From Patescibacteria group bacterium (lineage in GTDB: Bacteria > Patescibacteriota > Saccharimonadia > Saccharimonadales > 2-12-FULL-41-12), in the NCBI GenBank assembly GCA_038064875.1, contig JBBTSC010000001.1, positions 443,004 through 507,003 of the forward strand: DNA of 64,000 nucleotides, written 5' to 3'. Made by a program: the position numbers and the translations under genes. Below, piece after piece: positions 4,396 to 39,169 of the stretch. The notes under the pieces are model-generated. The model did no database searches. It saw nothing but the letters and a program-made list of their open reading frames with translations, and was not told where the DNA came from. Numbering within the stretch: position 1 is the stretch's first letter; each line of letters opens with the position of its first letter.

Positions 4396-4793
4396 GGGGC
4401 TGATTTTAGCTCGACATTGGACTTTTACAGATTGGTTCGCATATCGCTTGCTGAGCGTCATACGGCAAAACCCTTAACTGCAAATGCATTTAAGAGCGTA
4501 AAGAATTTTGTTGCTAGTATTTTTACTCCTCAATATTCTTACGCAATAGCCTAAGTTTAATCTTAAGCCACGGACTTGATCGACATCAGATAGATCATCT
4601 TCCGTGTTATATTATCTGATTGCTAGAATCCCGCGCCTCTTTCCGTGGATTCTCTAAGACCATGAAAGATGCGAAAATATCGTTTTGTTTGTTTAACCGA
4701 TGTTTTCTAAGACAACTCAAACAAACTAAATATGTAGAAGACCAGTCAAAGTAAAACCGATGGACGTGGGTGCAATACCCACCAGCTCCACCA
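4396..4793 (+). ncRNA. ssrA: tmRNA (SsrA)
   Basis: 5' GGGGCTGATTTTAGCTCGAC and 3' GGACGTGGGTGCAATACCCACCAGCTCCACCA form the tRNA-Ala-like domain. The internal tag frame ends ...SIFTPQYSYAIA then TAA (4552-4554). Confidence 0.85.
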
Positions 4794-4798
4794 AAAAC

Positions 4799-5053: not shown

Positions 5054-5223
5054 AGTTTTATATATATTTAGGAATTACGGTTGGTGGAGCTCTAGGTGGC
5101 TGGATAGGAACAATGCTGGACCATGGAAATGGGTTTGGACCGTGGAGTTTACTTCTTAGTACAGTTGGTGGGTTTGGCGGACTCTACATCGGTTATAAAT
5201 TTGGGAAAGCTGTTGGCAATTAG
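5050..5223 (+). CDS. small Gly-rich membrane protein (57 aa), below the ORF-track cutoff
   Basis: ATGA overlap with the previous micro-ORF. Sequence: MKFYIYLGITVGGALGGWIGTMLDHGNGFGPWSLLLSTVGGFGGLYIGYKFGKAVGN. Confidence 0.45.
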   Translation: MKFYIYLGITVGGALGGWIGTMLDHGNGFGPWSLLLSTVGGFGGLYIGYKFGKAVGN

Positions 5224-10257: not shown

Positions 10258-10905
10258 TTATTGCTGGGTCGTCATGTAGTAGTAGCCTACGCCAAGAGCC
10301 ACGGCAACTATCAAAATAAGAACTGCCAGGATTGCCCCCATCTTGCTATTCGTAGCTGAGTCTTTTATTGGCAAGAAATATTCCTTGGATTCAATTTTTT
10401 CCTCTAAGGCTTTAAGTTTTTCTTCTCTCTCTTTATTGGCAAGCTCCTCTTGGCGCTTTGTGTTAACCTCCCCAGCTAGAGCATCAACTTCTGCGGATCC
10501 CTCGTCTGAATTGGTGGAGTCAGGAGTCTTGTCTGAAGACTCTTCTTTTTTGACTTCAGAGGATTCTTCTTTTTCGTCCTTTGGTTGCTCAGCTTCTTCT
10601 GGCTCTTTCTGCCCTTCAGGATCCTTTGACTCTTCTTTCTCTTCTGGTTTTGGAGGATCAACCTTCACCTCTACTTTTTCAGAATCAGACTCTGCCTCTT
10701 TTTCTGTAGATGGAGCTTCTGTTGACTGTATTGTTGCCTTTTTCTCTTCATCTGTTAGGGGTGCAATAACTTTCTTTGACTTCTCAACTATTGTGCTGTC
10801 TACGACTTCGTTACTATTGCCTACAACTACCGGACGTGAAGTTGCTGACTGAGCCACCTTGTCCGCATCCTTAACATCATCCATTGATTTATTTTTTTCT
10901 GCCAT
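10258..10905 (-). CDS. acidic Glu/Lys/Ser-rich, tail-anchored membrane protein
   Basis: Low-complexity E/K/S-rich body with a single C-terminal TM helix (MGAILAVLILIVAVALGVGYYY). Its start abuts the tpiA stop. Confidence 0.55.
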   Translation of the reverse strand: MAEKNKSMDDVKDADKVAQSATSRPVVVGNSNEVVDSTIVEKSKKVIAPLTDEEKKATIQSTEAPSTEKEAESDSEKVEVKVDPPKPEEKEESKDPEGQKEPEEAEQPKDEKEESSEVKKEESSDKTPDSTNSDEGSAEVDALAGEVNTKRQEELANKEREEKLKALEEKIESKEYFLPIKDSATNSKMGAILAVLILIVAVALGVGYYYMTTQQ

Positions 10906-15952: not shown

Positions 15953-17125
15953 TTACTGGATGCGCGGGATGATCGTGGCTGTGAAGAACAGCGGATCGGC
16001 AGGTTTGCCTCCAGCGCTCGCGATTGCCTTGAACTCAGCAGTTCCGGGTGAGTCCGCCCACAGCGTTGCCGTGAAGCATTTTGACTTTGCCGGACATGGC
16101 TGATTGCTTCCGAGCACGGTGACTGGCTGAATGCCAGAAACGTGCGCGTATGGGTTGGGGCCAGTGGTCTGACCGTTTGTACCGGGAACGATCGAGAGGA
16201 TGTTGAAGGAGTCAATGTTGTCTCCGTCGGGATCCGTAACGATGAACCACAGTTGTCGGTTGTCACCGGCCATGGTGTGCGCGGTCATGCCGTCGTTGCT
16301 GATTGTTGGTGGACGATCACAGTCTCCATTGCTGGGGATTGGACGTCCGTCCGGGCACTTCGGCGTCGGTGGTGGTTCTGTTGGACCGCAGATGACTGTG
16401 CCACCTGGACTGTTCACGTTCGAACAGATGTTCGTGACGTTGCAGTTACCTCCTTGGTCGTTGTTATCTCCACCAACGTTGACGTTGCCACATTGGTTTT
16501 GAATCACAACGCATTGGTTGCCTTGCTTGATGGTGCCGGCCTGACAGTCTTGCGTGGTGGTCTGTGTCTGTACAACACATTGGTCGACGGAGTTAACCAC
16601 CTTGCCAGAGTCAGAGCAGACGATGGTCCCCTTGGGAGGCTTGGGCTTCTTCGGGGGCTTCGGCTTCTTCTTGCACGGACGTTTGACGAGCAAGTTTCCT
16701 ACCTGCTTGTTACCGCATCGTGCTTCGTAGCCGTGCTTCGTGCGTGCCTTCTTGCATGGCGCCGGAGCGTACTTCTCGGGAACCCAGTAGACGGATCCTT
16801 CCGGGATGTACTTCTTCGGGCCCTTGACCTTCTTGAACTTGCCACCTGTGCAGGTGAAGTTCGTCACGTAACCGCCCTTGACGACGATCGTTTTCACGAT
16901 GCCACCTTTGACGATTGAACGAGCCGAGCCGTCGAGGCCTGGTTTCTGACCGGTTGAACGTGCGACCTCGTCGAGGACGCCTTTGGACTTCCAGCCATTG
17001 ATGACCGAGGAAATTGACTTTCCTCCACCACAGGCTCCCGCTGCTGACGCAGATGAGACAAAAATCGTCCCAACCACAGCCATGCAGGCGAGCACCGCAG
17101 TCGTAGTTGCTATTACCTTACGCAT
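15953..17125 (-). CDS. secreted Cys/Gln/Asn-rich protein of unknown function, GC-rich (probably foreign) gene
   Basis: Longest ORF in a GC-rich block. Signal peptide MRKVIATTTAVLACMAVVGTIFVSSASA; SD GGAGGTG 7 nt upstream. The antisense track ORFs here are GC artefacts. Confidence 0.7.
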   Translation of the reverse strand: MRKVIATTTAVLACMAVVGTIFVSSASAAGACGGGKSISSVINGWKSKGVLDEVARSTGQKPGLDGSARSIVKGGIVKTIVVKGGYVTNFTCTGGKFKKVKGPKKYIPEGSVYWVPEKYAPAPCKKARTKHGYEARCGNKQVGNLLVKRPCKKKPKPPKKPKPPKGTIVCSDSGKVVNSVDQCVVQTQTTTQDCQAGTIKQGNQCVVIQNQCGNVNVGGDNNDQGGNCNVTNICSNVNSPGGTVICGPTEPPPTPKCPDGRPIPSNGDCDRPPTISNDGMTAHTMAGDNRQLWFIVTDPDGDNIDSFNILSIVPGTNGQTTGPNPYAHVSGIQPVTVLGSNQPCPAKSKCFTATLWADSPGTAEFKAIASAGGKPADPLFFTATIIPRIQ

Positions 17126-17574: not shown

Positions 17575-18888
17575 ATGAACATAGTTATTTTAGGATTTGG
17601 AGCGCAAGGCAAAAGTTCTCTTAAGTATTGGCAAAAACTTGGCGCATCAGTAACAGTGGCAGATATCAATCCCAAGCTGGAGTTAACATATGGTGTAACT
17701 GGCAAACTTGGGCCTGACTATCTGTCAAATCTAGATCAGTATGACCGTATAGTTCGTGCTCCAATAATCCACCCACACCAGATCGTGGAGGCAAACCCAG
17801 ATAGCCCTAATATCCTCGAGAAAGTCACTAGTAACACTAACGAATTCTTCCATACTAGCAAAACTAAAAACATTATCGGTGTAACTGGCACTAAAGGCAA
17901 AGGCACCACAAGCACACTGATCACCAAGATGTTAGAAGCTAGTGGCAAAAAAGCACATCTGATAGGCAATATTGGGACCCCACCTCTGGACGTATCTGAA
18001 CAGATACAGCCAGATGACTGGGTAGTTATGGAACTAGCTAATTTTCAGCTGATTGACCTCAAATATTCACCTCATATCGCCGTTTGTGTCATGGTAGAGC
18101 CTGAACACTTGGATTGGCACGAAGATACCGAAGAGTATATATCCGCAAAACAGCAACTTTTCATTAATCAAAAAGAGACAGATATCGCCATCTACTACCA
18201 TGATAATGAGCTATCTGAAGAAGTAGCCAGCGCTAGTATTGGACGGCTAGTATCCTACTACAGCCCTGATGGAGCATATGTCAAAGATGACAAAGAAGTG
18301 TGGATAGAAAATCAGAAAATCTGTGGTGTTGAGGAGATCAAACTTGTTGGTAAGCACAACTGGCAGAATATATGCGCCGCGATAACCGCCATCTGGCAAA
18401 TTGATCAAAATATTAAAGCTATTCGCCAAGTTGTTACCACTATAACAAGTCTGCATTATAGACTTGAATTTGTCAGAGAAGTTGGTGGTGTTAAATTCAT
18501 TAATGATTCATTCTCTTCTGCTCCCGGTGCATGCAATGCAGCAATTAATGCTATCTCTGGGCCAAAAATCATAATCATCGGAGGAAAAGATAGAATGCTT
18601 GATCTTAAAGAACTCTGTCAAGAAGTTATTAAGAATAGCTCTTCAATTAGTAAGATTCTACTTATTGGTGAATCAAAAGATCGGATTGCAAAAGAATTTA
18701 AGTCTGTTGGGTTTGATAATTTCATGATCATTAAAGAAACCACTATGACAGAAATAGTACACCAAGCTAAAAATCTGGCAAAGCCAGGTGACTGTGTTGT
18801 ACTAAGCCCTGGGTTCCCAAGTTTTGATATGTTTAAAAACTTCGAAGACAGGGGTGATAAATTTGTTTCAGAGGTGAACGCACTATGA
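17575..18888 (+). CDS. murD: Mur ligase, MurD-like (UDP-MurNAc-L-Ala--glutamate ligase)
   Basis: Rossmann-like N-terminus IVILGFGAQGKS, P-loop GVTGTKGKGTT and the Mur-ligase central and C-terminal pattern. Confidence 0.8.
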   Translation: MNIVILGFGAQGKSSLKYWQKLGASVTVADINPKLELTYGVTGKLGPDYLSNLDQYDRIVRAPIIHPHQIVEANPDSPNILEKVTSNTNEFFHTSKTKNIIGVTGTKGKGTTSTLITKMLEASGKKAHLIGNIGTPPLDVSEQIQPDDWVVMELANFQLIDLKYSPHIAVCVMVEPEHLDWHEDTEEYISAKQQLFINQKETDIAIYYHDNELSEEVASASIGRLVSYYSPDGAYVKDDKEVWIENQKICGVEEIKLVGKHNWQNICAAITAIWQIDQNIKAIRQVVTTITSLHYRLEFVREVGGVKFINDSFSSAPGACNAAINAISGPKIIIIGGKDRMLDLKELCQEVIKNSSSISKILLIGESKDRIAKEFKSVGFDNFMIIKETTMTEIVHQAKNLAKPGDCVVLSPGFPSFDMFKNFEDRGDKFVSEVNAL

Positions 18889-20156
18889 GCAAATACCGAA
18901 CTTTTTGTTTTGACAACTATGTTTTTGATAAAGCCAACAAAACCCTAGTGCTTAGATATAATTTCGACTCTCAGGAATCACTAGAAGAAAGATACGTATT
19001 TAATTGTGATTTTGTAGATTATAACCAGGACGCCCTGGATCGTGCTTTGCAATTACTTTTTTTGATGGCAGGAATTTCATATTATAAAGCTTATCTGCCA
19101 CCAAAAATAATTACCAAGAACTTAACTATTGATCCTACTGTAGCTAATTTTTTGTCTAAAACATACCAAAAAGGTTTGGGAGAATTTTTTTATGAAAATT
19201 CTTTAGCTTTTAATAATTCTATCGAATTCCCGATTACTGCCACCGAAATATCTCCTCTAGAAATTGATTCAGATGGAACATTAGTTGCGGTCGGGGGAGG
19301 CAAAGATTCTATCGTATCTGTAGAAAAAATGAAAGGCAATCTTGATGTCACCACTTGGTCTCTTGGCCACAGGCAACAACTTGAGCCCTTGATCAAACAG
19401 CTAGATACAGAGCATATATGGGTTGAGCGACAACTCGACCCAAAGCTTTTTAAACTAAATTCTCAAGGAGCTTATAACGGACATGTTCCTATTTCTGCTA
19501 TTTTTGGTTGTGTTGGCGCTATCTTATGTATTCTAACCGGTAAAAAAGATATTGTTATGTCTAATGAGTATTCAGCTAATGAAGAAACGATGGTGTATCA
19601 GGGATATAAGATAAATCACCAGTATTCTAAGACTTCTGAATTTGAAGAAGATTTTCAGAGAATACTCACACACCTATTTGGTAATGGTATTCGGTATTAC
19701 TCCTTGCTCAGACCCTTTTCAGAGCTACAGATCAGCGAAATGTTTGCCCAATATTTTGATAAATACCGTGATGTATTCAGCTCTTGCAATCGTGCTTTTG
19801 TCCAACGAAGCGATGCTTTAGGTTGGTGTGGCGAATGTCCAAAATGTGTTTTTACTTTTCTAGCCTTGGCAACATATTTGGATATTGACCAAGTTACTGC
19901 ACTTTTTGGTGGAAAGAACTTACTACTAAATAAGGATTTGCGTAAATCTTTTCAAAAGCTCATCAGTTCCGACCAACGAAAGCACTTTGATTGTGTTGGC
20001 ACGATAGAAGAAAGTCGATACGCTATGAAGCAACTACTCGATCAATTCCCTGAGTCAAAAGCACTTTTCGGTGAACTTCACACCAATTATGATCACGCTA
20101 CTACGCAACCTCATTTGATACCGCAAGATATTGTGTCGAAATTAGATCTTTTGTGA
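18885..20156 (+). CDS. PP-loop (adenine nucleotide alpha-hydrolase-like) protein with a C-terminal CxxCxxC; possible MurL-type partner of MurD
   Basis: ATGA overlap with murD. Has VAVGGGKDS (PP-loop-like) around aa 135 and WCGECPKC near aa 315. Confidence 0.65.
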   Translation: MSKYRTFCFDNYVFDKANKTLVLRYNFDSQESLEERYVFNCDFVDYNQDALDRALQLLFLMAGISYYKAYLPPKIITKNLTIDPTVANFLSKTYQKGLGEFFYENSLAFNNSIEFPITATEISPLEIDSDGTLVAVGGGKDSIVSVEKMKGNLDVTTWSLGHRQQLEPLIKQLDTEHIWVERQLDPKLFKLNSQGAYNGHVPISAIFGCVGAILCILTGKKDIVMSNEYSANEETMVYQGYKINHQYSKTSEFEEDFQRILTHLFGNGIRYYSLLRPFSELQISEMFAQYFDKYRDVFSSCNRAFVQRSDALGWCGECPKCVFTFLALATYLDIDQVTALFGGKNLLLNKDLRKSFQKLISSDQRKHFDCVGTIEESRYAMKQLLDQFPESKALFGELHTNYDHATTQPHLIPQDIVSKLDLL

Positions 20157-21422: not shown

Positions 21423-22880
21423 TTATTGATCAAGTGGCTTGCCGGTGTTCGACAAATCTTTGACCAAGAAAAGAGCAAAAATTGATGCAGCCACGGCAAA
21501 TCCCGCGCCGACATAAAAGGCACTGTGAAATCCTTGAACCAATGCATCCGCTTGGACCAAGGGAGTAATCTGTCCTTGTGCTTTTTCTAAAACGTCTGCG
21601 GTCTTCGATGCAGAAACGCCACTGAGTATGGCCAAGCCCAAGGCTCCACCAATCTGCTGAGAAGTGTTTAGCACTCCTGATGCAAGACCCGATTCGTCCT
21701 TTGGTACCCCAGAAGTAGCTGCTATCGTAAGTGAGACAAACGACATTCCAAGCCCTACTGCCATCACAGCAAGTCCTGGGAACACATCGCCCAAATAAGT
21801 TCCGCCAACAGGAGTCCCTTTAGCAAGGATAAAAAGGCCGAGCGCCATCACAAGTGGTGCTATAACTAAAATCTTTTTATAGCCTGTTCTAGCGATGAGG
21901 CTAGAAACAATTCCGGAGACAATACCAATTATTATCGTCACTGGCAAGAAGCTCAGTCCTGATTTTACCGGAGAATACTGTAAAATCGTTTGGATGTAGA
22001 GTGATAGGAAAAAGAACATTGAGAACAAGCTAGCGGTGATCGGAAACTGTGTTAAGTTGGCTCCAAGCACATTTCTTATCTTAAATAACTGTAGAGGCAT
22101 CAGTGGATGCTTGACTTTAATCTCGTTGACGATAAAGCCTATCAGCAGAATCGCTGAAAGTCCTAAAGTTATAATGCTGTTATCCGAAGTCCACCCTTTA
22201 CTCGGCGCTTCTGTTAGACCATAAACTAGAAGCATAAGTCCTGATGTAACCAGCGTTGCGCCTCTAAGATCAAGATGTCTGTGCCCCAAATCTGTTGTGC
22301 TCTCAGGAATATGTTTGAGACCAAGATAAACCACACCAAGGGCAACTGGTACGTTGATGAAGAAATTCCACCGCCAGCTAGCATATTCAGTTATGATTCC
22401 GCCGAGCAGTACACCAGCAGCCGCACCTCCGGCTGCAACGGCAGCCCATACACCAAGCGCTTTGTTACGTTCTTTTCCTTCTTTGAACATAGTGATCACA
22501 ATAGATAGGGCTGCTGGGGACATGAAGGCAGCTGTAAGTCCTTGTAGGGCCCTTGCCAGGATCATAGTTGTTTCAGAATTTGAAAATCCAGTGATCAGCG
22601 AAGCTATGCCGAATAGTGCAGTTCCGATAAGAAAAGTTCTTTTGCGACCATACAGATCGGCCACACGCCCACCAAGTAGCAGAAATCCACCTACTGCTAA
22701 CGTATAGGCAGTAACAATCCACTGTAGATTTTCCGGACTGAATCTAAGAGCGCTTTGTATGTGTGGCAATGCTATGTTCACGACAGAAACATCCAAAACA
22801 ACCATAAACTGGGCGATTGCCAGAAGCGTCAGAACAAACCACTTATTTTTATCTTCCTTAATTTTGTCTTTTTTAGCCAT
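21423..22880 (-). CDS. MFS transporter, DHA2/EmrB-like (14-TM type)
   Basis: Motifs LDVSVVNIALP and GGRVADLYGRKR. Start trimmed to ATG 22880 (MAKKDKIKEDK...). Confidence 0.85.
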   Translation of the reverse strand: MAKKDKIKEDKNKWFVLTLLAIAQFMVVLDVSVVNIALPHIQSALRFSPENLQWIVTAYTLAVGGFLLLGGRVADLYGRKRTFLIGTALFGIASLITGFSNSETTMILARALQGLTAAFMSPAALSIVITMFKEGKERNKALGVWAAVAAGGAAAGVLLGGIITEYASWRWNFFINVPVALGVVYLGLKHIPESTTDLGHRHLDLRGATLVTSGLMLLVYGLTEAPSKGWTSDNSIITLGLSAILLIGFIVNEIKVKHPLMPLQLFKIRNVLGANLTQFPITASLFSMFFFLSLYIQTILQYSPVKSGLSFLPVTIIIGIVSGIVSSLIARTGYKKILVIAPLVMALGLFILAKGTPVGGTYLGDVFPGLAVMAVGLGMSFVSLTIAATSGVPKDESGLASGVLNTSQQIGGALGLAILSGVSASKTADVLEKAQGQITPLVQADALVQGFHSAFYVGAGFAVAASIFALFLVKDLSNTGKPLDQ

Positions 22881-26741: not shown

Positions 26742-26818
26742 TGGAGGGCCAGGAGGGACTCGAACCCTCGACACCCTGCTTAAGAGGCAGGTGCTCTAAC
26801 CAGCTGAGCTACTGGCCC
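26742..26818 (-). tRNA. tRNA-Lys (anticodon CUU), CCA encoded
   Basis: Hand-folded: acceptor GGGCCAG/CTGGCCC, anticodon arm CCTGC-CTCTTAA-GCAGG, T arm GAGGG-TTCGAGT-CCCTC. Confidence 0.9.
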
Positions 26819-27012: not shown

Positions 27013-27520
27013 TTTGATCGAAAGATTTGATTGTCTCTTTGAGAACTTCTATCATTTTCTCTGCATGCTCTCGGCTCATGCCTACACGTGATACGGGGGT
27101 TGATTGCCCGTTTATCTGTTGTGAGAATTGGATAACTACTCCACCTTGATTGACTGTGGCCTGCATACTGTCTGTATAAACTACTTTGCTGTCCAAGGGC
27201 ATGAGCATTACCATTTGTTTAGTTAGCGCATCCTCAAGTCCACGACCGAGCGCCTCCTGAGTCTTCGTATCATAATCTTCAATTGTTTTGAGCAGTTCAT
27301 CAGCCTGTTCGTCTGTCAGCAAGAAGTGCTCGATAATCATATCCAAAATGTCTTCACTCGGTAGGGTTTTTCCAGACTCTATAGCGTGTAACAAAGCCTC
27401 ATCGAGTTCTAATGTACCAGACAGTTCACCAATGGACTGATTCCATTGCTCTCGCAGAGATCGTATCTTGGCACCGAGATCTTGAAATGGTTGATTTTGG
27501 TCGTTTTTGTTAGAACCCAT
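26999..27520 (-). CDS. XRE-type HTH protein with a DUF3467-like C-terminal domain
   Basis: N-terminal HTH pattern (LGAKIRSLREQWNQSIGELSG...IESGK). The C-terminal VVYTDSMQATVNQGGVVIQFSQ...MSREHAEKMIEVL resembles DUF3467. Confidence 0.6.
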   Translation of the reverse strand: MGSNKNDQNQPFQDLGAKIRSLREQWNQSIGELSGTLELDEALLHAIESGKTLPSEDILDMIIEHFLLTDEQADELLKTIEDYDTKTQEALGRGLEDALTKQMVMLMPLDSKVVYTDSMQATVNQGGVVIQFSQQINGQSTPVSRVGMSREHAEKMIEVLKETIKSFDQNKKS

Positions 27521-28604
27521 ATCTACATGCTACGCCTATTTAACGTACGATTCAAGCATAACAAGTTATAATAATAATGTGATAGATATCAAAGAAAATA
27601 TTAGCTTAAAAGAACACTCGACAATGCGACTGGGTGGCAATGCTCGCTACTACTGCGTCGTAACCACTATGTTTGAGCTAAAAGAAGCTGTGGAATTCGC
27701 TGATAGCAAGTCAATCGATGCAATCATGATTGGCGGAGGAAGTAATATCATCTGGCAAGACAGTGGATACGACGGACTTGTTATTGTGGGTAATATAAAG
27801 AATTATGAAGTTAATGATTCGCTTGATCAAACATTTGTAACGGTTGGCAGTGGCGAGAATTGGGACGAAGTCGTTGGAAAAACTGTTGAAGCGGGACTAT
27901 CTGGACTAGAATTTATGTCTCTCATACCAGGAACCGCTGGTGGCACACCAGTGCAAAATGTTGGTGCATATGGTGGTGAAGTTGCGCAAACACTTGTTTC
28001 TGTCCAAGCTTATGACCGGAAGGCCAAAAATTTTGTAACTCTTTCTAACGCAGATTGTGAATTTGGTTATCGCACCAGTCGATTTAAAACAAATGACAAG
28101 GGTCGGTTTTTTATCTTTTCACTAACATTCTCCTTGTCTATGAATCCACCGAAAGGTCCTTTTTATGGATCTCTCGAGGGTTATTTGAAACAAACTGGCG
28201 TGACGAGCCCTACATCAGCCGACATAAGAAATGCTGTCGTAGAAATTCGAACCAATAAATTACCAAATCCTGAGCAATACCCTAATTGTGGATCCTTTTT
28301 TGCTAATCCTGTAATCGAGATGAACCAACTAAGACTTATAAAAGAGAGTTATCCGGGCATTAAATACTGGGAAGTTCCAGGCGGAAAGGCAAAGATTTCG
28401 GCTGCTTGGCTGATAGAAGCTATCGGACTAAAGGGATTTGTGGAGCAAAATACAGGAATTCGCGTCTGGGACAAACAGCCACTTGTTCTAATAAATGATC
28501 ATGCTACGAGTACAGCTCAGCTGATTGCATTTCGTGACGCAGTCATTCAAAAAATAAAAGCTAAATTTGAAATCACCCTACACCAAGAACCGGAGATTAT
28601 TTAA
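27507..28604 (+). CDS. murB: UDP-N-acetylenolpyruvoylglucosamine reductase
   Basis: HSTMRLGGNARYY, GGGSNI and the C-terminal MurB pattern. The true start may be GTG 27579, 6 nt after TATAAT 27567-27572. Confidence 0.9.
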   Translation: MLEPISTCYAYLTYDSSITSYNNNVIDIKENISLKEHSTMRLGGNARYYCVVTTMFELKEAVEFADSKSIDAIMIGGGSNIIWQDSGYDGLVIVGNIKNYEVNDSLDQTFVTVGSGENWDEVVGKTVEAGLSGLEFMSLIPGTAGGTPVQNVGAYGGEVAQTLVSVQAYDRKAKNFVTLSNADCEFGYRTSRFKTNDKGRFFIFSLTFSLSMNPPKGPFYGSLEGYLKQTGVTSPTSADIRNAVVEIRTNKLPNPEQYPNCGSFFANPVIEMNQLRLIKESYPGIKYWEVPGGKAKISAAWLIEAIGLKGFVEQNTGIRVWDKQPLVLINDHATSTAQLIAFRDAVIQKIKAKFEITLHQEPEII

Positions 28605-30410: not shown

Positions 30411-31931
30411 ATGCCAAAAACAAATGCGAAAATTGGTCTTTTAATCCAACACGTGCGACAAGAACGCGGAATGACCCAGGCCAGCCTAGCAAAACATCTA
30501 GGAACAAGTCAGAGTGCGATCAACCGCATAGAAAAAGGTAATCAGAACCTAAGTATTAATATGATCGGCAAGATCAGCGACATCCTCAACAAGCCGATCC
30601 TGCAAGTAGACAGTGGTGCCACAAACCTCCGAATAGAAGGCGGACAAGAGCTATCTGGAAGTGTATCTCTCAAAAAGAGCAAAAATGCAGCTGTTGCACT
30701 TCTGTGCGCGAGCTTGCTCAACCACGGGATAACTCGGTTCAAATCTTTTCCAAAAATAGAAGAGGTCAACAGAATTATTGAAACACTTGAGAGTATCGGC
30801 GTAAAAATCAAATGGGGCAAGAACGGTGACATAGAAATCAGAAGACCGGCAAAACTCAATCTAGAAAAAATAAACTCAAACTCAGCCAAAAAAACAAGAA
30901 GCGTTATTATGTTACTCGGCGCACTGATGCATGAATACAGTGAGTTCAAAATACCATATGCAGGGGGCTGTAAGCTGGGCGAACGTACGGTTACACCACA
31001 TCTTTATGCGCTGGAACAATTCGGTGTATCAATAGATACCAAAAATCATTATTATCATGTTAAATCTACTCCAAAGCACGTTAAGAGAGTAGTATTGTAC
31101 GAAGCTGGAAATACTGTTACCAACAACGTGCTGATGGCTGCGGCTTTCGATACGACTCCTACCATCATTCAGGGCGCAAGTGCTGACTATATGGTGCAAG
31201 ATCTTTGCTCATTTCTGAAAAGATTGGGTGTAAAGATAGACGGAGTTGGATCGCCAGTACTTACGGTCACAGGCATTTCAAAAGCAAAGAAAAATATATC
31301 TTTCAGTGCAACAGAAGACCCGATAGAGGCTATGTTCTTTATTTCTGCAAGTGTGACAACAAATTCTAGTATCACAATCGAGCGAGTACCTTTTCATTGG
31401 ATAGGTCTAGAGCTACTAAAGTTAGAGAAAATGGGCCTTGCCTTTAAAGTTGGTAAGCCCTACCCGTGTGACAACGGAGTTACTGAGCTTGCTGACATAA
31501 AAATCGAAAAGCACGATGGAAATCTCCGCGCACCTATAGAAAAGATCCATCCGAATTTGTGGCCTGGGCTCAACCCGGATAATATTCCATACTTCGTACC
31601 AATTTGTGCAACCGCAAAAGGTAGGACTCTAATCCACGACTGGATGTTTGAAAATCGAGCAATATACTACACCGAACTGACAAAGATTGGGGCACATGTA
31701 GAGCTAGCTGATCCTCATAGATTATATGTAACTGGACCAACAAAGTGGGAAAATAGCGACGTTATTTGCCCCCCTGCTCTACGCCCAGCTAGTCTGCTAC
31801 TGATAGGAATGCTTGCTGCCGATGGAATTAGCACTCTTCGAAATGTTTATACAATAAATAGAGGTTACGAAGATTTGGCTAATAGGCTTAATTCGCTTGG
31901 TGCTAAAATAACCGTAATGAGCGAAATCTAG
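30411..31931 (+). CDS. murA: fusion protein: N-terminal XRE HTH domain plus MurA-type UDP-GlcNAc 1-carboxyvinyltransferase
   Basis: aa 1-65 match the XRE HTH (RQERGMTQASLAKHLGTSQSAINRIEKG). The rest aligns by eye with MurA (SKNAAVALL for K22/N23; YAGGCKLGERTV for the Cys115 loop). Confidence 0.85.
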   Translation: MPKTNAKIGLLIQHVRQERGMTQASLAKHLGTSQSAINRIEKGNQNLSINMIGKISDILNKPILQVDSGATNLRIEGGQELSGSVSLKKSKNAAVALLCASLLNHGITRFKSFPKIEEVNRIIETLESIGVKIKWGKNGDIEIRRPAKLNLEKINSNSAKKTRSVIMLLGALMHEYSEFKIPYAGGCKLGERTVTPHLYALEQFGVSIDTKNHYYHVKSTPKHVKRVVLYEAGNTVTNNVLMAAAFDTTPTIIQGASADYMVQDLCSFLKRLGVKIDGVGSPVLTVTGISKAKKNISFSATEDPIEAMFFISASVTTNSSITIERVPFHWIGLELLKLEKMGLAFKVGKPYPCDNGVTELADIKIEKHDGNLRAPIEKIHPNLWPGLNPDNIPYFVPICATAKGRTLIHDWMFENRAIYYTELTKIGAHVELADPHRLYVTGPTKWENSDVICPPALRPASLLLIGMLAADGISTLRNVYTINRGYEDLANRLNSLGAKITVMSEI

Positions 31932-31982: not shown

Positions 31983-32057
31983 GCGGGTGTCGTATAACGG
32001 CTAATATGCCTGCCTTCCAAGCAGGCGATGAGAGTTCGATTCTCTCCACCCGCACCA
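31983..32057 (+). tRNA. tRNA-Gly (anticodon UCC), CCA encoded
   Basis: Hand-folded: anticodon arm CCTGC-CTTCCAA-GCAGG, T arm GAGAG-TTCGATT-CTCTC. Confidence 0.9.
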
Positions 32058-32066
32058 AATTTAAAT

Positions 32067-32143
32067 GCCCTGGTAGCTCAGCTGGATAGAGCAGGAGACT
32101 TCTAAGCTCAAGGCCGTAGGTTCGAATCCTACCCGGGGCACCA
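32067..32143 (+). tRNA. tRNA-Arg (anticodon UCU), CCA encoded; weak anticodon stem
   Basis: Good acceptor, D and T arms. The anticodon loop CTTCTAA is flanked by only 3 Watson-Crick pairs (G27/A43 and A31/G39 are mismatched). Confidence 0.7.
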
Positions 32144-32194
32144 CATTTTTATAAACACTTTTCCCGATAAGTAATCAAGATTTGATAATTTATC

Positions 32195-32225
32195 GGGGCC
32201 AGGAGTTTACTCTTTGGCTCCACCA
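32195..32225 (+). other. tRNA-Ala-like acceptor minihelix ending in ACCA (relic or small RNA)
   Basis: GGGGCCA pairs with TGGCTCC, including G3:U70, then GGAG-TTTA-CTCT, then ACCA. The same acceptor signature occurs in tRNA-Ala and tmRNA. Confidence 0.35.
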
Positions 32226-32244
32226 CGTTTTTACTCAAAATTGT

Positions 32245-32322
32245 GGCGGGTGTAGCTCAGCTGGTTAGAGCGCCGGGTTGTGGTTCCGGAGGCCGTGGGT
32301 TCAAGACCCATCACTCGCCCCA
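32245..32322 (+). tRNA. tRNA-His (anticodon GUG) with encoded G-1 and CCA
   Basis: G-1 lies opposite C73. Anticodon arm CCGGG-TTGTGGT-TCCGG, T arm GTGGG-TTCAAGA-CCCAT. Confidence 0.9.
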
Positions 32323-32328
32323 AAATTA

Positions 32329-32979
32329 TTACAAATTTGAAATCAGAAAAACTACTGCTATGGGTACGAGCAGGTTATCCAAGCCCTTGATAGTGGTATT
32401 TTCTATAATGCTAAGAGTTATTGGCATTGCTATCAATAGCCAGACATAATCCTCGTACCTTCCAGAAAGCAAGATATAAAAAGTCGTTATCACCAAAGAA
32501 CATAGTAAGAAAGTTACTGAGCCGAGCACTGTCTTGGCTTCGTGTCCTATATGATAAGCAATCTTTTTGCCCCATTTTTTGCCAACAACTGCTGCCAAAC
32601 CATCAGCCAATGCCAAGTGTGCTACGGCAACAAAAAATACCCATGGGTCTTCTGTTATAAACGATGTCATGAGTATCCCTAGTGGGAAAAGCACTGCTCC
32701 GTACGTCTGTCGGCTGACACTATGTATCGACGAAAAAATCTTGAAGTAGTGCGAAGTGAGCGCTACAGTGAACATGAGAGCAGACAAAACTTTTATCTCT
32801 GGAAAATCTATCAAAAAGGGCCAGCTAGCTATCCAAAGACCGCCAACAATATGTATGAACTTCCGAGAGAGTTCGTTTGAAAGTATTTTTTTGTACCATA
32901 GTATTTCGCCTGCAAAAACCACAAAGCCAAGAACGGCTGATACTACAATAATTGAAAAGATATTCAGTTGCTCTATCAT
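32329..32979 (-). CDS. membrane protein of the CTP-dependent polyprenol/diacylglycerol kinase / cytidylyltransferase (CdsA-related) family
   Basis: Multi-TM protein with RKFIH and LADGLAAVVGKKWGK motifs. Confidence 0.6.
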   Translation of the reverse strand: MIEQLNIFSIIVVSAVLGFVVFAGEILWYKKILSNELSRKFIHIVGGLWIASWPFLIDFPEIKVLSALMFTVALTSHYFKIFSSIHSVSRQTYGAVLFPLGILMTSFITEDPWVFFVAVAHLALADGLAAVVGKKWGKKIAYHIGHEAKTVLGSVTFLLCSLVITTFYILLSGRYEDYVWLLIAMPITLSIIENTTIKGLDNLLVPIAVVFLISNL

Positions 32980-36275: not shown

Positions 36276-37178
36276 ATGGAAAGTTTTCTACCGAAATGCT
36301 ATTTTCAGGGCAAAATTATTAATTTTAAAGATGCCAAAATCTCGGTAGCAACCCACGCACTACATTATGGAACTGGAGCTTTTGGCGGACTCAGAGCAAC
36401 CGTAGACACAAAAACCAAACAGGTCGTACTTTTTAGATTAAAAGATCACTGCAAACGCCTAAGTAAAAGCGCCAAACTCCTAGGCTACGATTTATCACCT
36501 AAATTCATTGAAGAAAAAATTACCGAATTCGTAAAAGCCAATCCAACTAAAAAAGATTATTATATTAGGCCTTTGATTTATGTATCTGATCTTGGCATAG
36601 CACCTAGACTACATAATGTATCCTATGATTTTCTGATATATGGGTTACCAATGGGCGATTACCTCAACAAGGGAGGTGTGAAAGTTTGTTTTAGCTCATG
36701 GGTGCGCGGTGAAGATAGAAGCCTTCCCCTAAGAGGAAAAATAACGGGCACTTACGTCACAAGTGCGCTTTCAAAAACAGAAGCTCACGCTAGAGGCTTT
36801 GATGAAGCAGTCTTGCTCAATTCACAAGGGAAAATTGCTGAGGCAAGTGCTATGAATATATTTATTGTCAGAGATGGTGAGCTTATTACCCCTTCAGTTA
36901 ATCAAGATATTTTAGAAGGGATTACTCGTGACAGCATCATGAAGATTGCAGAAAATCTTGGCTACAAAGTGACTGAACGTGCTGTTGATAAATCAGAACT
37001 GATTATTGCCGATGAAGTTTTCCTTACCGGAACCGCTGCACGAATAACTCCTGTTAAAAAAATTGAAGGTTATAGCTTGCCAAGAAACAATCCCGTGACA
37101 AAAGCTCTTTCTAAAGAATTCGCAAATATATTTGAAAACCCAAATTCACAATACTCAGAGTGGCTGACTAAGATATAA
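36276..37178 (+). CDS. ilvE: branched-chain amino acid aminotransferase (class IV PLP enzyme)
   Basis: THALHYGTGAFGGLRA signature. 300 aa. Confidence 0.85.
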   Translation: MESFLPKCYFQGKIINFKDAKISVATHALHYGTGAFGGLRATVDTKTKQVVLFRLKDHCKRLSKSAKLLGYDLSPKFIEEKITEFVKANPTKKDYYIRPLIYVSDLGIAPRLHNVSYDFLIYGLPMGDYLNKGGVKVCFSSWVRGEDRSLPLRGKITGTYVTSALSKTEAHARGFDEAVLLNSQGKIAEASAMNIFIVRDGELITPSVNQDILEGITRDSIMKIAENLGYKVTERAVDKSELIIADEVFLTGTAARITPVKKIEGYSLPRNNPVTKALSKEFANIFENPNSQYSEWLTKI

Positions 37179-37184
37179 AAGTGA

Positions 37185-37904
37185 CTACCTGCCCAGAGAC
37201 CTGGCAACTTTGCGTGCTTCAACAGCCAACTGATCATCAACTAATTTTGGCTGATAGTTGCCGAATTTTCTGACAACTGCTTTTTCTATTAACCAGTCTG
37301 CTATAGCTGGATTTTTAGGCAAAAGCGATCCGTGGAGATAGCTACCAATTACGTTTTTATACAGAGCACCTTCTGATTTGTCTTTGCCGTTATTGCCTGC
37401 TCCTCTGACTACTTTCGCCAGCGCCTTTTGATCAGCATCAAGAACAGTCAACCCACTATGATTTTCATAGCCAACAATCTCGCCAAATAAATCACTCTTT
37501 GTCACGATATTACCAATCAATCTCTTTGGTCCACCGACTGTCTGAGCTCCAAAAATACCTATTCCTTCTATCCTATCGCCTTGTGCCGTTTCAAAATACC
37601 GGCCAAAGAGCTGATAGAGACCACAGATCATCAACATTGGCACTCCATCGTCAGCAAGTTTGTGTAAATTTTTACTTATTTTAAGAAGATCGTCACGAAT
37701 TTTATCCTGGCCAGAATCCTGTCCCCCGCCACCGACAATGATGTCCACTTCTTTAGGAAAAGGTTTCCCGGGATGGTGCTCTAAAATTTCAACGCTATAT
37801 CCCTGCCATTCGAGTCGTTTTTTTAAGGTCAGGGCATTTCCCCAGTCACCATATATATTCATCTCCGAGGGATAGAGTTGTAATAGTCTAATTTGCTTGG
37901 TCAT
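37185..37904 (-). CDS. gatD: lipid II isoglutaminyl synthase, glutamine amidotransferase subunit (GatD, CobB/CobQ-like GATase)
   Basis: LYPSEMNIYGDWGN, ICGLYQLFG (Cys nucleophile) and a 4-nt overlap with murT. Confidence 0.85.
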   Translation of the reverse strand: MTKQIRLLQLYPSEMNIYGDWGNALTLKKRLEWQGYSVEILEHHPGKPFPKEVDIIVGGGGQDSGQDKIRDDLLKISKNLHKLADDGVPMLMICGLYQLFGRYFETAQGDRIEGIGIFGAQTVGGPKRLIGNIVTKSDLFGEIVGYENHSGLTVLDADQKALAKVVRGAGNNGKDKSEGALYKNVIGSYLHGSLLPKNPAIADWLIEKAVVRKFGNYQPKLVDDQLAVEARKVARSLGR

Positions 37905-39169
37905 AATACCCTCTCTATATCTGTCTTTTTTCGAAGCAGTTGCCGGAATTCAAGCATTGCAGTATAGGTGCAAAAGATTCTCTTGGGTTTTGTTGGTTTA
38001 GACTCAATAAATTGGTTTAGCGCTTTTGAAAGCTTTGGCTCAACTAAATTTACATGAATATCATCGTACTGAAGTCTAAGAGCCATATCATAAGCACGAA
38101 TTCCGCTTACTGTATTGACCAAATGGCCCAGTGAAGTAAAATCAACATCCCAAAGCCACGACATATCACGCCCATCAGCATAATTATCATTTATTGCGAT
38201 CATGGTCTCCACATTGCTGGAGTTGAATGATTTAAGACCGAGACGAAATCCAGCTGGATTTTTTACCAGCACGAGCTCAAGTGGCTGGCCATTTACGTGG
38301 ACAACCTCGCCTCGCCCAAAAGCAGGCGTTATATCCTCTAAACGTTTTGCGAGAGCATCAAGGTTAATATCATCTTCACAGACCGCTTTTACTAAACAAA
38401 GTGCCGCTGCGATATTGAAAATATTGTAGATACCGGTTATCTTCAGATTAACTGCCAGTGGCTTATTATCAATATATATTTCTGCCTGACTATCTTTAAA
38501 ATCACTCAGTATGACTTCTGCTTCGACCGATGGCTGGTCTGATTTTTTGACACCGTACATCTCATCATCATTTGGAAAATTCTCCTGTAATTTGGGGTCA
38601 ATGCCAAAAAACTTTATTTTTTTGTCACCAAGATCGTCTGCTATTTTCCTAAGCCGAGCATCCTCGCGATTTATAACAACTGTGTCTTTTGTCGCTAGAG
38701 CAATCTTCTGAAGCATACCGGCCGTTACGTCTATCTCACCAAACCGATCGAGCTGATCACGCATGACATTTAGAAGCAAGCTATACCTCGGCTTTATTTC
38801 GCTCACAAAATGTACTGCGTGAGCTTCATCAAGTTCAAGTACGGCGATGTCTGCATCAAGATTGCCATTTAGATCCATCTCGCTAATCAGAGCTGATATC
38901 ACTCCTCTCTTAAAATTACTGCCTGTCGAATTAGAGAACACCTTAAAACCTTGGCTCTCTAAAAGTTCTGTGACTATTTTTGAAGTTGTTGTCTTACCAT
39001 TCGTTCCACTAATGACAATAACGCCATGAGGTAATGTACCAAGTGCTTTTTTTAGGAAAGTTTTGTCTATCTTTTCAACAGCCAAACCAGGCAAAGCTGA
39101 TCCGCCACCCCTGAGTCGTGACGCTACTCGAACGCCTTTACCTATTAATACGGTTGATTTCTTGACCAT
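37901..39169 (-). CDS. murT: lipid II isoglutaminyl synthase, Mur-ligase-like subunit (MurT)
   Basis: P-loop GTNGKTTT, Mur-ligase middle domain and a DUF1727-like C-terminus (DGRDMSWLWDVDF). Confidence 0.85.
   Translation of the reverse strand: MVKKSTVLIGKGVRVASRLRGGGSALPGLAVEKIDKTFLKKALGTLPHGVIVISGTNGKTTTSKIVTELLESQGFKVFSNSTGSNFKRGVISALISEMDLNGNLDADIAVLELDEAHAVHFVSEIKPRYSLLLNVMRDQLDRFGEIDVTAGMLQKIALATKDTVVINREDARLRKIADDLGDKKIKFFGIDPKLQENFPNDDEMYGVKKSDQPSVEAEVILSDFKDSQAEIYIDNKPLAVNLKITGIYNIFNIAAALCLVKAVCEDDINLDALAKRLEDITPAFGRGEVVHVNGQPLELVLVKNPAGFRLGLKSFNSSNVETMIAINDNYADGRDMSWLWDVDFTSLGHLVNTVSGIRAYDMALRLQYDDIHVNLVEPKLSKALNQFIESKPTKPKRIFCTYTAMLEFRQLLRKKTDIERVL

Follow-up and report, generated by a model that had tools for sequence, protein, structure and literature searches.

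A conserved tRNA-Ala-like acceptor minihelix encoded between tRNA-Arg and tRNA-His in one clade of Saccharibacteria

The genome of a Patescibacteria group bacterium (Saccharibacteria or TM7; Saccharimonadia; Saccharimonadales; assembly GCA_038064875.1), which derives from Hainich groundwater assemblies, carries a cluster of transfer RNA (tRNA) genes within a stretch of 64,000 nucleotides (nt) of contig JBBTSC010000001.1 (positions 443,004 to 507,003), which was analysed in full and is referred to here as the window. Three plus-strand genes of the cluster were called by both ARAGORN and Rfam, each with its CCA end encoded: tRNA-Gly(TCC) at 31983-32057 (Rfam, 65.7 bits), tRNA-Arg(TCT) at 32067-32143 and tRNA-His(GTG) at 32245-32322, the last including an encoded G-1 at 32245 (ARAGORN, 32246-32322). 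A murA gene with a fused helix-turn-helix (HTH) domain lies upstream (30411-31931), and a convergent gene for a 216-aa membrane protein lies downstream (32329-32979). Between tRNA-Arg and tRNA-His, where an earlier note on this DNA had placed it and where the ARAGORN and Rfam calls confirm it to be, stands the subject of this study: a 31-nt hairpin at 32195-32225 (GGGGCCAGGAGTTTACTCTTTGGCTCCACCA) resembling the acceptor end of tRNA-Ala, hereafter the minihelix. It is preceded by an AU-rich leader hairpin, with which it forms a module, and is tentatively read here as the gene of a small tRNA-derived RNA.

The earlier note had drawn a 7-bp stem (GGGGCCA/TGGCTCC) with a G3:U70 wobble, an inner 4-bp stem with a bulged U and a UUUA loop, and a single-stranded ACCA end, and folding reproduced all of these. 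The stem-loop covers 32195-32221 of the plus strand. Its acceptor-like stem runs from G1-C27 to A7-U21, with G3 (32197) and U25 (32219) forming the equivalent of G3·U70, and is continued by the inner pairs G8·U, G9-C18, A10-U17 and G11-C16, with one bulged U and the UUUA loop. The unpaired A73-C-C-A tail at 32222-32225 is encoded in the genome. Folded alone, the 31-mer reached -16.3 kcal/mol (z = -3.2 against dinucleotide shuffles, with 1 of 200 shuffles as good), and the fold of the reverse strand was unremarkable (z = -1.1). A reverse-strand terminator serving the convergent gene was rejected on account of this weak fold and of the lack of a T-run after it.

The identity set of bacterial alanyl-tRNA synthetase (AlaRS) comprises A73, G2-C71, G3·U70 and G4-C69, together with G20 in the D loop (PMC9976931), and the minihelix holds all four acceptor-stem members. 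The G3·U70 wobble within the 7-bp acceptor helix is invariant in the six full lineages described below, as are A73, G2-C71, G4-C69 and the unpaired CCA-3' throughout their alignment. Judged by its sequence, the minihelix is a fit to the definition of an AlaRS acceptor-stem substrate. The earlier note had also likened its ends to those of the transfer-messenger RNA (tmRNA) of the same window; this tmRNA (4396-4793) is genuine (Rfam RF00023, 87.5 bits) and ends GGGGCTG...CAGCTCCACCA, which favours alanylation of the minihelix in that it indicates that the AlaRS of this organism reads a GGGGC.../...GCUCCACCA stem. The string CTCCACCA was present in seven copies in the window where 1.6 were expected, a count reached by none of 100 shuffles; the copies lie in the tmRNA, in the minihelix and at 5082-5089, 10512-10519, 16468-16475, 17023-17030 and 21644-21651.

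Searches on both strands of 618 kb of Saccharibacteria DNA returned 21 hairpins that have 10 bp or more and end in a 3' NCCA overhang. G3·U70 was found only in two of them, both members of the present family, which also possess G2-C71, G4-C69 and A73. As far as sequence can tell, the minihelix as a product of chance or decay is ruled out. Known RNA classes did not accommodate it either. ARAGORN called seven tRNAs in the window and left the minihelix uncalled, and Rfam applied to 32100-32300 at E-values up to 10 gave the two flanking tRNAs and noise only, while the gathering thresholds over the whole window gave no family for the element. It has no cloverleaf in the sense of RF00005 or ARAGORN, a 31-nt hairpin being too short for the arms, and it lacks the tRNA-like domain, pseudoknots and tag frame of RF00023, with no Rfam or ARAGORN match at the minihelix. 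Furthermore, the canonical acceptor-T minihelix has a 5-bp T stem and a 7-nt T loop (TTCRANY), in place of which the inner helix here consists of G·U plus 3 bp closed by UUUA.

Relatives were sought in several ways, and their loci are given below by working handles. A MurA-based scan with one genome per species returned 80 Saccharibacteria loci (L001-L080), among which the element was present in L001 alone (MurA 85% identical), as GGGGCCAGGAATTTATTCTTTGGCTCCACCA. A scan of metagenomes with the pattern GGGGCCAN{10,24}TGGCTCCACCA matched at least 119 stretches; among the matches listed, nearly all were chance occurrences in GC-rich DNA, where the frequency of extended stems was close to expectation, and the only family members were L155 (of the L001 lineage) and L201. 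L224 (MurA 91%) and L225/L226 were reached through MurA homologues, and L229-231, L233 and, at the end of L234, a partial copy were reached through homologues of the membrane protein encoded downstream. The module occupies the same locus in six full lineages (the window, L224, L201, L001 (=L155/L225/L226), L229-231 and L233) and, partially, in L234, and the gene order common to them is murA, tRNA-Gly, tRNA-Arg(tct), hairpin plus minihelix, and tRNA-His. The next relatives (MurA at most 75% identical) have no element at this locus, and most of those that keep tRNA-Arg(tct) have an ordinary terminator directly after that tRNA. Conservation in relatives had been named by the earlier note as a way of checking its proposal, and the minihelix proved to be present and paired in the close ones and missing only from the more distant.

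With a covariance model, the module proved to be single in the 64-kb window and no further copy appeared in the 80 Saccharibacteria loci, which is not the many copies per genome of a dispersed repeat. A weak match in L023 (16 bits, E 0.5) overlaps a 120-codon open reading frame (ORF) and was taken as chance. Viral sequences scanned with the same pattern and with two further acceptor stems of tRNA-Ala yielded 17, 9 and 5 matches, none of which adjoined tRNA genes; several are long hairpins with the ACCA paired, and they provided no evidence of a phage counterpart. Among the viral contigs, the related L248:4112-4148, L250:402-438 and L251:398-434 carry a hairpin, GGGGCCTCTTGCGTTGGATGCGAGCTAGGCTCCACCA, with a tRNA-Ala-like stem and a free ACCA, and L243:632-670 is a perfect 15-bp hairpin with the same two features. 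These four hairpins have no tRNA genes close by and probably lie within coding DNA.

Pairwise identity between lineages is 29-31 of 31 positions (94-100%) for the minihelix, 72-77 of 77 for the flanking tRNAs and 23-30 of 33 for the leader hairpin. MurA is 83-94% identical at the protein level between the same lineages, with third codon positions at 39-55%, and the remaining spacer is unalignable, with lengths of 19-188 nt and 20-100 nt. By blastn, the match of the 81-nt module of L201 to the window stood at 90%, compared with 71.5% for the coding DNA around it. The minihelix is the same in five lineages, and that of the L001 lineage departs from it at just two positions, by the substitutions G11>A and C16>U; these fall on pairing partners and convert G11-C16 into A11-U16. 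The UUUA loop, the bulged U and the ACCA do not vary (the last in all seven lineages, L234 included), and the first variable column directly follows the terminal A, where the conserved block stops. The wobble pairs of both helices are compatible with a plus-strand RNA only. A pair test over the module in six sequences found three pairs changed on both sides, one of them in the minihelix, with 96.5% of cells paired; control structures slid by 1-3 columns had 37-60% of cells paired and no doubly changed pairs. This gives modest support to a structured RNA under selection. The alignment likewise supports the view that the element is a plus-strand RNA structure under sequence constraint, with a conserved block that ends where a mature tRNA would.

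The earlier note had left a choice between a tRNA-Ala gene that had lost its arms and a functional minihelix RNA, an interpretation that is partly supported: conservation speaks for a functional, structured plus-strand RNA element with a tRNA-like 3' boundary. A tRNA pseudogene drifting neutrally would account for the position within a tRNA cluster and for the missing D, anticodon and T arms. Within the window, the sequence that comes closest to the element is the acceptor/T junction of tRNA-Lys(ctt) (26742-26818, minus strand): minihelix positions 2-11 (32196-32205, GGGCCAGGAG) equal positions 1-7 of that tRNA joined to 49-51. A neutral relic is excluded because the element is near-invariant across six lineages whose synonymous sites are near-saturated and because its sole change is compensatory; the unalignable flanks also speak against drift, and this explanation is given next to no probability. 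The match to tRNA-Lys(ctt) hints at an internal tRNA deletion followed by remodelling, though it may be a coincidence. Neither the window nor any of the loci compared with it contains a tRNA-Ala gene.

Another explanation locates the function in the DNA, either as an attachment or recombination site of a tRNA-targeting integrative element or as an operator or promoter palindrome. The adjoining tRNA-Arg(tct) is an insertion hot spot in relatives, where its 3' end is the target (L224:4610-4796, L201:4294-4459, L233 between tRNA-Arg and the module, and L078:5398-5483). In L224, a 151-nt insert lies between 18-nt direct repeats of the tRNA 3' end (ATCCTACCCGGGGCACCA at 4610-4627 and 4779-4796); the related inserts of L201 and L233 are longer and their repeat is decayed, and L078 has a tRNA 3'-fragment ending GCGCACCA. 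Moreover, both helices of the module are inverted repeats, and the adjacent MurA bears an XRE-type HTH domain. However, a tRNA 3' fragment left by integration would not bring a matching 5' acceptor strand, whereas here GGGGCCA is present and fully paired and the 3' end is unlike that of any tRNA in the window or the tmRNA. The conserved G·T positions and the C>T changes keep pairing in plus-strand RNA only, the double substitution of L001 preserves a base pair, the inserts lie upstream of the module and not at it, and the element is single in the window and absent from 80 other loci. The minihelix site is not an integration scar as judged from these sequences, the genuine scars standing just upstream in L224, L201 and L233 with the module intact, and a DNA-level site is considered very unlikely.

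The inserts themselves share a hairpin followed by AGGTTCGG, an example being ATATCGTAGTCGTAGGTTCGGTAAAGC in both L201 and L233, and occur at L224:4628-4778, L201:4294-4420, L233 (reverse, ~2040-2240), L052 after 4870, L023 after 7390 and L030 after 4873. No Rfam family reached its gathering score in those of L201, L023, L030 and L052, and they may represent either a small mobile element or a structured RNA of a kind not yet described. A further insertion, a GIY-YIG nuclease ORF at L001:4737-5048 (=L225, L226), lies between tRNA-Gly and tRNA-Arg and has a tandem repeat of TGTGCTCGCTCATGGTGAACCATTCAA (two copies) in front.

The leader hairpin occupies 32163-32194 on the plus strand, with a core stem of 32166-32178 paired to 32182-32194 seen in folds and in pair changes across lineages. 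Two of its 13 pairs changed on both sides and four changed on one side to a wobble, and its G·U and U·G pairs are valid solely as plus-strand RNA. The competing upstream hairpin that the earlier note described as sharing the GGG does exist at 32163-32197 (CCCGATAAGTAATCAAGATTTGATAATTTATCGGG, with the arms CCCGATAA...TTATCGGG), in that CCC at 32163-32165 is able to pair with G1-G3 of the minihelix and does so in the minimum free energy fold of the 70-mer. L001 is the sole lineage whose precursor favours the full minihelix, and covariation could not separate the two folds because the columns concerned are invariant. A semi-conserved 5' flank of the module at 32153-32162 (AAACACTTTT) reads AAACACYTYT in five of the six lineages. 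This flank of about 10 nt, which has its equivalent in L224, L201, L229 and L233, stays with the module even where an insertion parts it from tRNA-Arg.

That the two-hairpin module and its ~10-nt 5' flank are conserved as a unit, with varying distance to both tRNAs, would suit an independent regulatory small RNA (sRNA) of ~70-80 nt, comprising the leader hairpin, the second hairpin and a U-tail, that acts by base pairing or protein binding and that resembles a tRNA at its 3' part only incidentally. Many bacterial sRNAs have a similar layout of two hairpins and a U-run, and a -10-like hexamer (GATAAT/GATTAT/GATAGT) lies at -11 to -6 from G1. Nevertheless, there is no convincing -35 element and the promoter scan made no call there, and the conservation of the hexamer is already explained because it doubles as the 3' arm of the hairpin; an internal promoter ending at G1 was rejected on the same two counts. 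An sRNA would also leave unexplained the complete AlaRS identity set and a conservation that ends at CCA and not at the U-run, and no Rfam family was matched. It is therefore regarded as improbable, if less so than a DNA site.

The reading preferred here is that of a tRNA-derived minihelix RNA that shares a transcript with the tRNAs, is matured to G1...CCA and is probably a substrate charged by AlaRS, a proposal which falls a little short of an even chance. Its gene would stand within the tRNA-Gly/Arg/His transcription unit and would be maintained by selection in one genus-level clade of Saccharibacteria, a part of the reading held just as tentatively. A candidate promoter for the cluster (TTAGCA-16-TACAAT, 31828-31855, plus strand) lies within the 3' end of murA and comes from a consensus scan alone. 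One precursor would cover the whole cluster, because the spacers measure 9-20 nt, no promoter-like site was found in the scan between tRNA-Arg and tRNA-His, and tRNA-His starts 20 nt past the ACCA, with only 19 nt between the ACCA and its G-1. The AU-rich hairpin 5' of G1 would then act as a leader, RNase P would cut 5' of G1, and 3' trimming would halt at the encoded CCA, as for the neighbouring tRNAs; a CCA is encoded by all seven tRNAs and by the tmRNA of this window. This second step is proposed because bacterial RNase P is known to cut hairpin substrates with a 3' CCA and because conservation ends exactly at the CCA; CCA-adding enzymes also accept minihelices. The pairing of CCC with G1-G3 may gate this maturation. 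The 31-nt product would most likely be alanylated, since all acceptor-stem identity elements of AlaRS are present and synthetic minihelices have been charged in vitro. Without an anticodon arm the 31-mer cannot decode, and hence its charged or uncharged form would have a different role, either donating alanine away from the ribosome or serving AlaRS and other tRNA-binding proteins as a buffer or decoy. Handling of the precursor like a pre-tRNA, to give a 31-nt alanine-accepting hairpin, is the most economical reading of the sequence data.

Several observations weigh against this minihelix RNA. The precursor fold that pairs CCC with G1-G3 is better by 1.6-1.8 kcal/mol in five of six lineages, and RNAalifold likewise gives it as the consensus. 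G1 is preceded by C in five of six lineages, the window included, unlike the U that precedes the RNase P site in all eight genuine substrates of the window (seven tRNAs and the tmRNA). The inner helix has 4 bp and a 4-nt loop, as opposed to a 5-bp T stem with a T loop, so that the helix as a whole amounts to 11 bp plus a bulge instead of 12 bp. Its distribution is narrow, with one copy in one genus-level clade, and as a result only one covarying pair backs the minihelix stem. No Fem-type transferase, aminoacyl-lipid synthase or AlaRS was found with Pfam and NCBIfam among the 54 ORFs of the window, because of which a Fem-type cell-wall role is kept hypothetical. Finally, a T-rich run follows the ACCA in six of seven lineages, and a canonical terminator stands at the equivalent place after tRNA-Arg(tct) in many of the more distant Saccharibacteria, which favours a role in 3'-end formation.

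These last two points lead to the main rival, in which only the architecture matters: a leaky intrinsic terminator, an attenuator, or a hairpin that protects or processes 3' ends would set the ratio of tRNA-Gly/Arg to tRNA-His, and the tRNA-Ala look would be inherited from a tRNA fragment with no aminoacylation role. The stem is suitably GC-rich and stable (11 bp, 6 of them G-C, -16.3 kcal/mol), and the T-rich trailer (32226-32244), which doubles as the short leader of tRNA-His, includes the TTTTT at 32228-32232 that the earlier note had pointed out. In four lineages tRNA-His lies 94-140 nt downstream, with a TATAAT box there in L234, so that tRNA-His may have its own promoter in those lineages. 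The trailer varies in sequence and in distance to the stem, however, and its T-runs begin 4-7 nt past the stem instead of the usual 0-2 nt; the terminator scan made no call, which leaves the terminator option of the earlier note unsupported in its canonical form. In real terminators of this genome, for instance the one behind the tmRNA, the T-run directly adjoins the stem, and in L001 a T-run is missing altogether (TTCTTCGC). tRNA-His follows 20-26 nt past the ACCA, with no promoter-like site, in the window, L224 and L229, and an efficient terminator would silence the sole tRNA-His gene seen at the locus. Terminators also normally conserve structure and not sequence, whereas here the loop, the bulge and the ACCA are invariant and conservation ends at the CCA. 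The architectural explanation is viewed as possible but on the unlikely side. A leaky terminator whose product is trimmed back to the CCA would be compatible with both the minihelix RNA and this rival, and the rest of the probability goes to explanations other than those set out here.

A stronger form of the preferred reading would make the minihelix a dedicated, genome-encoded 31-nt alanine carrier without an anticodon, matured by the tRNA machinery and charged by AlaRS via G3·U70; this is thought unlikely from the present sequence evidence. Such a carrier may serve, for example, as an alanine donor for cell-wall or lipid aminoacylation, or it may buffer AlaRS as a sensor of the charged and uncharged states.

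Peptidoglycan genes are plentiful in the window and comprise those for MurA, MurB, a MurD-like ligase, a MurL-like protein, MurT/GatD and a class IV aminotransferase. MurA (506 aa) has an N-terminal XRE-type HTH domain, and this fusion is kept in 80 of 80 loci (L001-L080) and also occurs in the best 120 of 7991 database homologues. The surroundings of the tRNA cluster are unusually dense in cell-wall genes, those within 5 kb encoding MurT/GatD (lipid II amidation), a class IV (D-amino-acid) aminotransferase and MurB, at 37185-39169, 36276-37178 and 27507-28604. Further away, a gene for a MurD-type ligase (17575-18888) has a stop that overlaps the start of that for a 423-aa protein (18885-20156), which matches the MurL epimerase model NF041275 (E = 9e-103, under the curated cut-off) and has no Pfam match. 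This pair suggests an L-Glu ligase/epimerase (MurD2/MurL) route to the peptidoglycan stem peptide in this Saccharibacterium.

Since 1989, acceptor minihelices with G3·U70 have been made in the laboratory, and they are a cornerstone of the thinking on an "operational RNA code" that preceded the anticodon. The Rfam scan and full-text literature searches revealed no organism reported to keep such a minihelix as a gene, and in the latter no alanine minihelix occurring naturally in bacteria came to light. That a minihelix of the alanine type is under selection here has strong support from the sequences and would be a surprise to specialists on tRNA, though its distribution is narrow. If the stronger form of the preferred reading, the dedicated carrier, is true, the element would be the natural counterpart of Schimmel's operational-code minihelices. 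A selected alanine-type minihelix with an encoded CCA in a tRNA operon would offer a natural system for asking whether cells use anticodon-less aminoacyl carriers, and for what in ultra-small, host-dependent bacteria of the Candidate Phyla Radiation, and how these carriers are handled in vivo by RNase P, AlaRS, EF-Tu and the CCA enzyme. If it is only a processing or termination hairpin, it would still be an example of a tRNA fragment recruited and frozen as an operon signal.

Among known systems, the synthetic minihelix or microhelix of tRNA-Ala shares with the element a 7-bp stem with G3·U70, G2-C71, G4-C69, A73, a free CCA and a hairpin without D or anticodon arm. The synthetic minihelix has a 5-bp T stem and 7-nt T loop in contrast to the G·U plus 3 bp, bulged U and UUUA tetraloop found here, and the present element is natural, genome-encoded and under purifying selection. 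Minihelices carrying G3·U70 were charged with alanine (Francklyn and Schimmel 1989, as cited in PMC9976931), and the same is predicted for the natural one.

The tRNA-like domain of tmRNA (RF00023) shares the GGGGC.../...GCUCCACCA ends, G3·U70, A73 and an encoded CCA. tmRNA is an alanine acceptor that does not decode by an anticodon, which is the sense in which the minihelix, with its predicted charging, is likened to it. The minihelix differs in the lack of a T arm, the SmpB-binding D-loop analogue, pseudoknots and tag frame, in its length (31 versus 398 nt) and at pairs 6 and 7 of the acceptor stem.

Hairpin-type RNase P substrates and tRNA-like signals, such as the 4.5S RNA precursor, the C4 RNA of phages P1 and P7 and the mammalian MALAT1 mascRNA, have an acceptor-like helix and a 3' CCA-type tail within a longer transcript, with a cut expected at the first base of the helix. 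They differ in their bodies and functions, mascRNA being a full cloverleaf with CCA added post-transcriptionally, and to our knowledge none of the three has the AlaRS identity set as its sole content. The Rho-independent terminators of tRNA operons share with the minihelix a GC-rich hairpin followed by a T-run, here at the end of the tRNA-Gly/Arg pair; the minihelix departs from them in the 4-7 nt before its T-run, in an invariant loop and ACCA, and in an essential tRNA gene within 20 nt in three lineages. Scars of the attR type likewise place a short tRNA-end sequence with CCA beside intact tRNAs, as genuine ones do at tRNA-Arg(tct) in L224 and L078. Such a scar decays and is a repeat of nothing but the 3' part of the tRNA beside it, whereas the minihelix is conserved, comprises both strands of the acceptor stem and does not match the end of any neighbouring tRNA.

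Aminoacyl carriers apart from decoding are exemplified by the non-proteinogenic tRNA-Gly isoacceptors of Staphylococcus aureus (PMC7826273) and by the substrates of the Fem-type transferase FemX of Weissella, which accepts Ala-helices with G2-C71 as its main determinant (PMC2655667). This determinant is present in the minihelix, and the link to such carriers is only hypothetical: they are full tRNAs in vivo, in contrast to a 31-nt hairpin with no Fem-type enzyme in its window. On its sequence, the element would fall outside tRNAs, tmRNA, T-arm minihelices, canonical terminators, dispersed repeats and att scars, and would find its place among the tRNA-like RNA elements.

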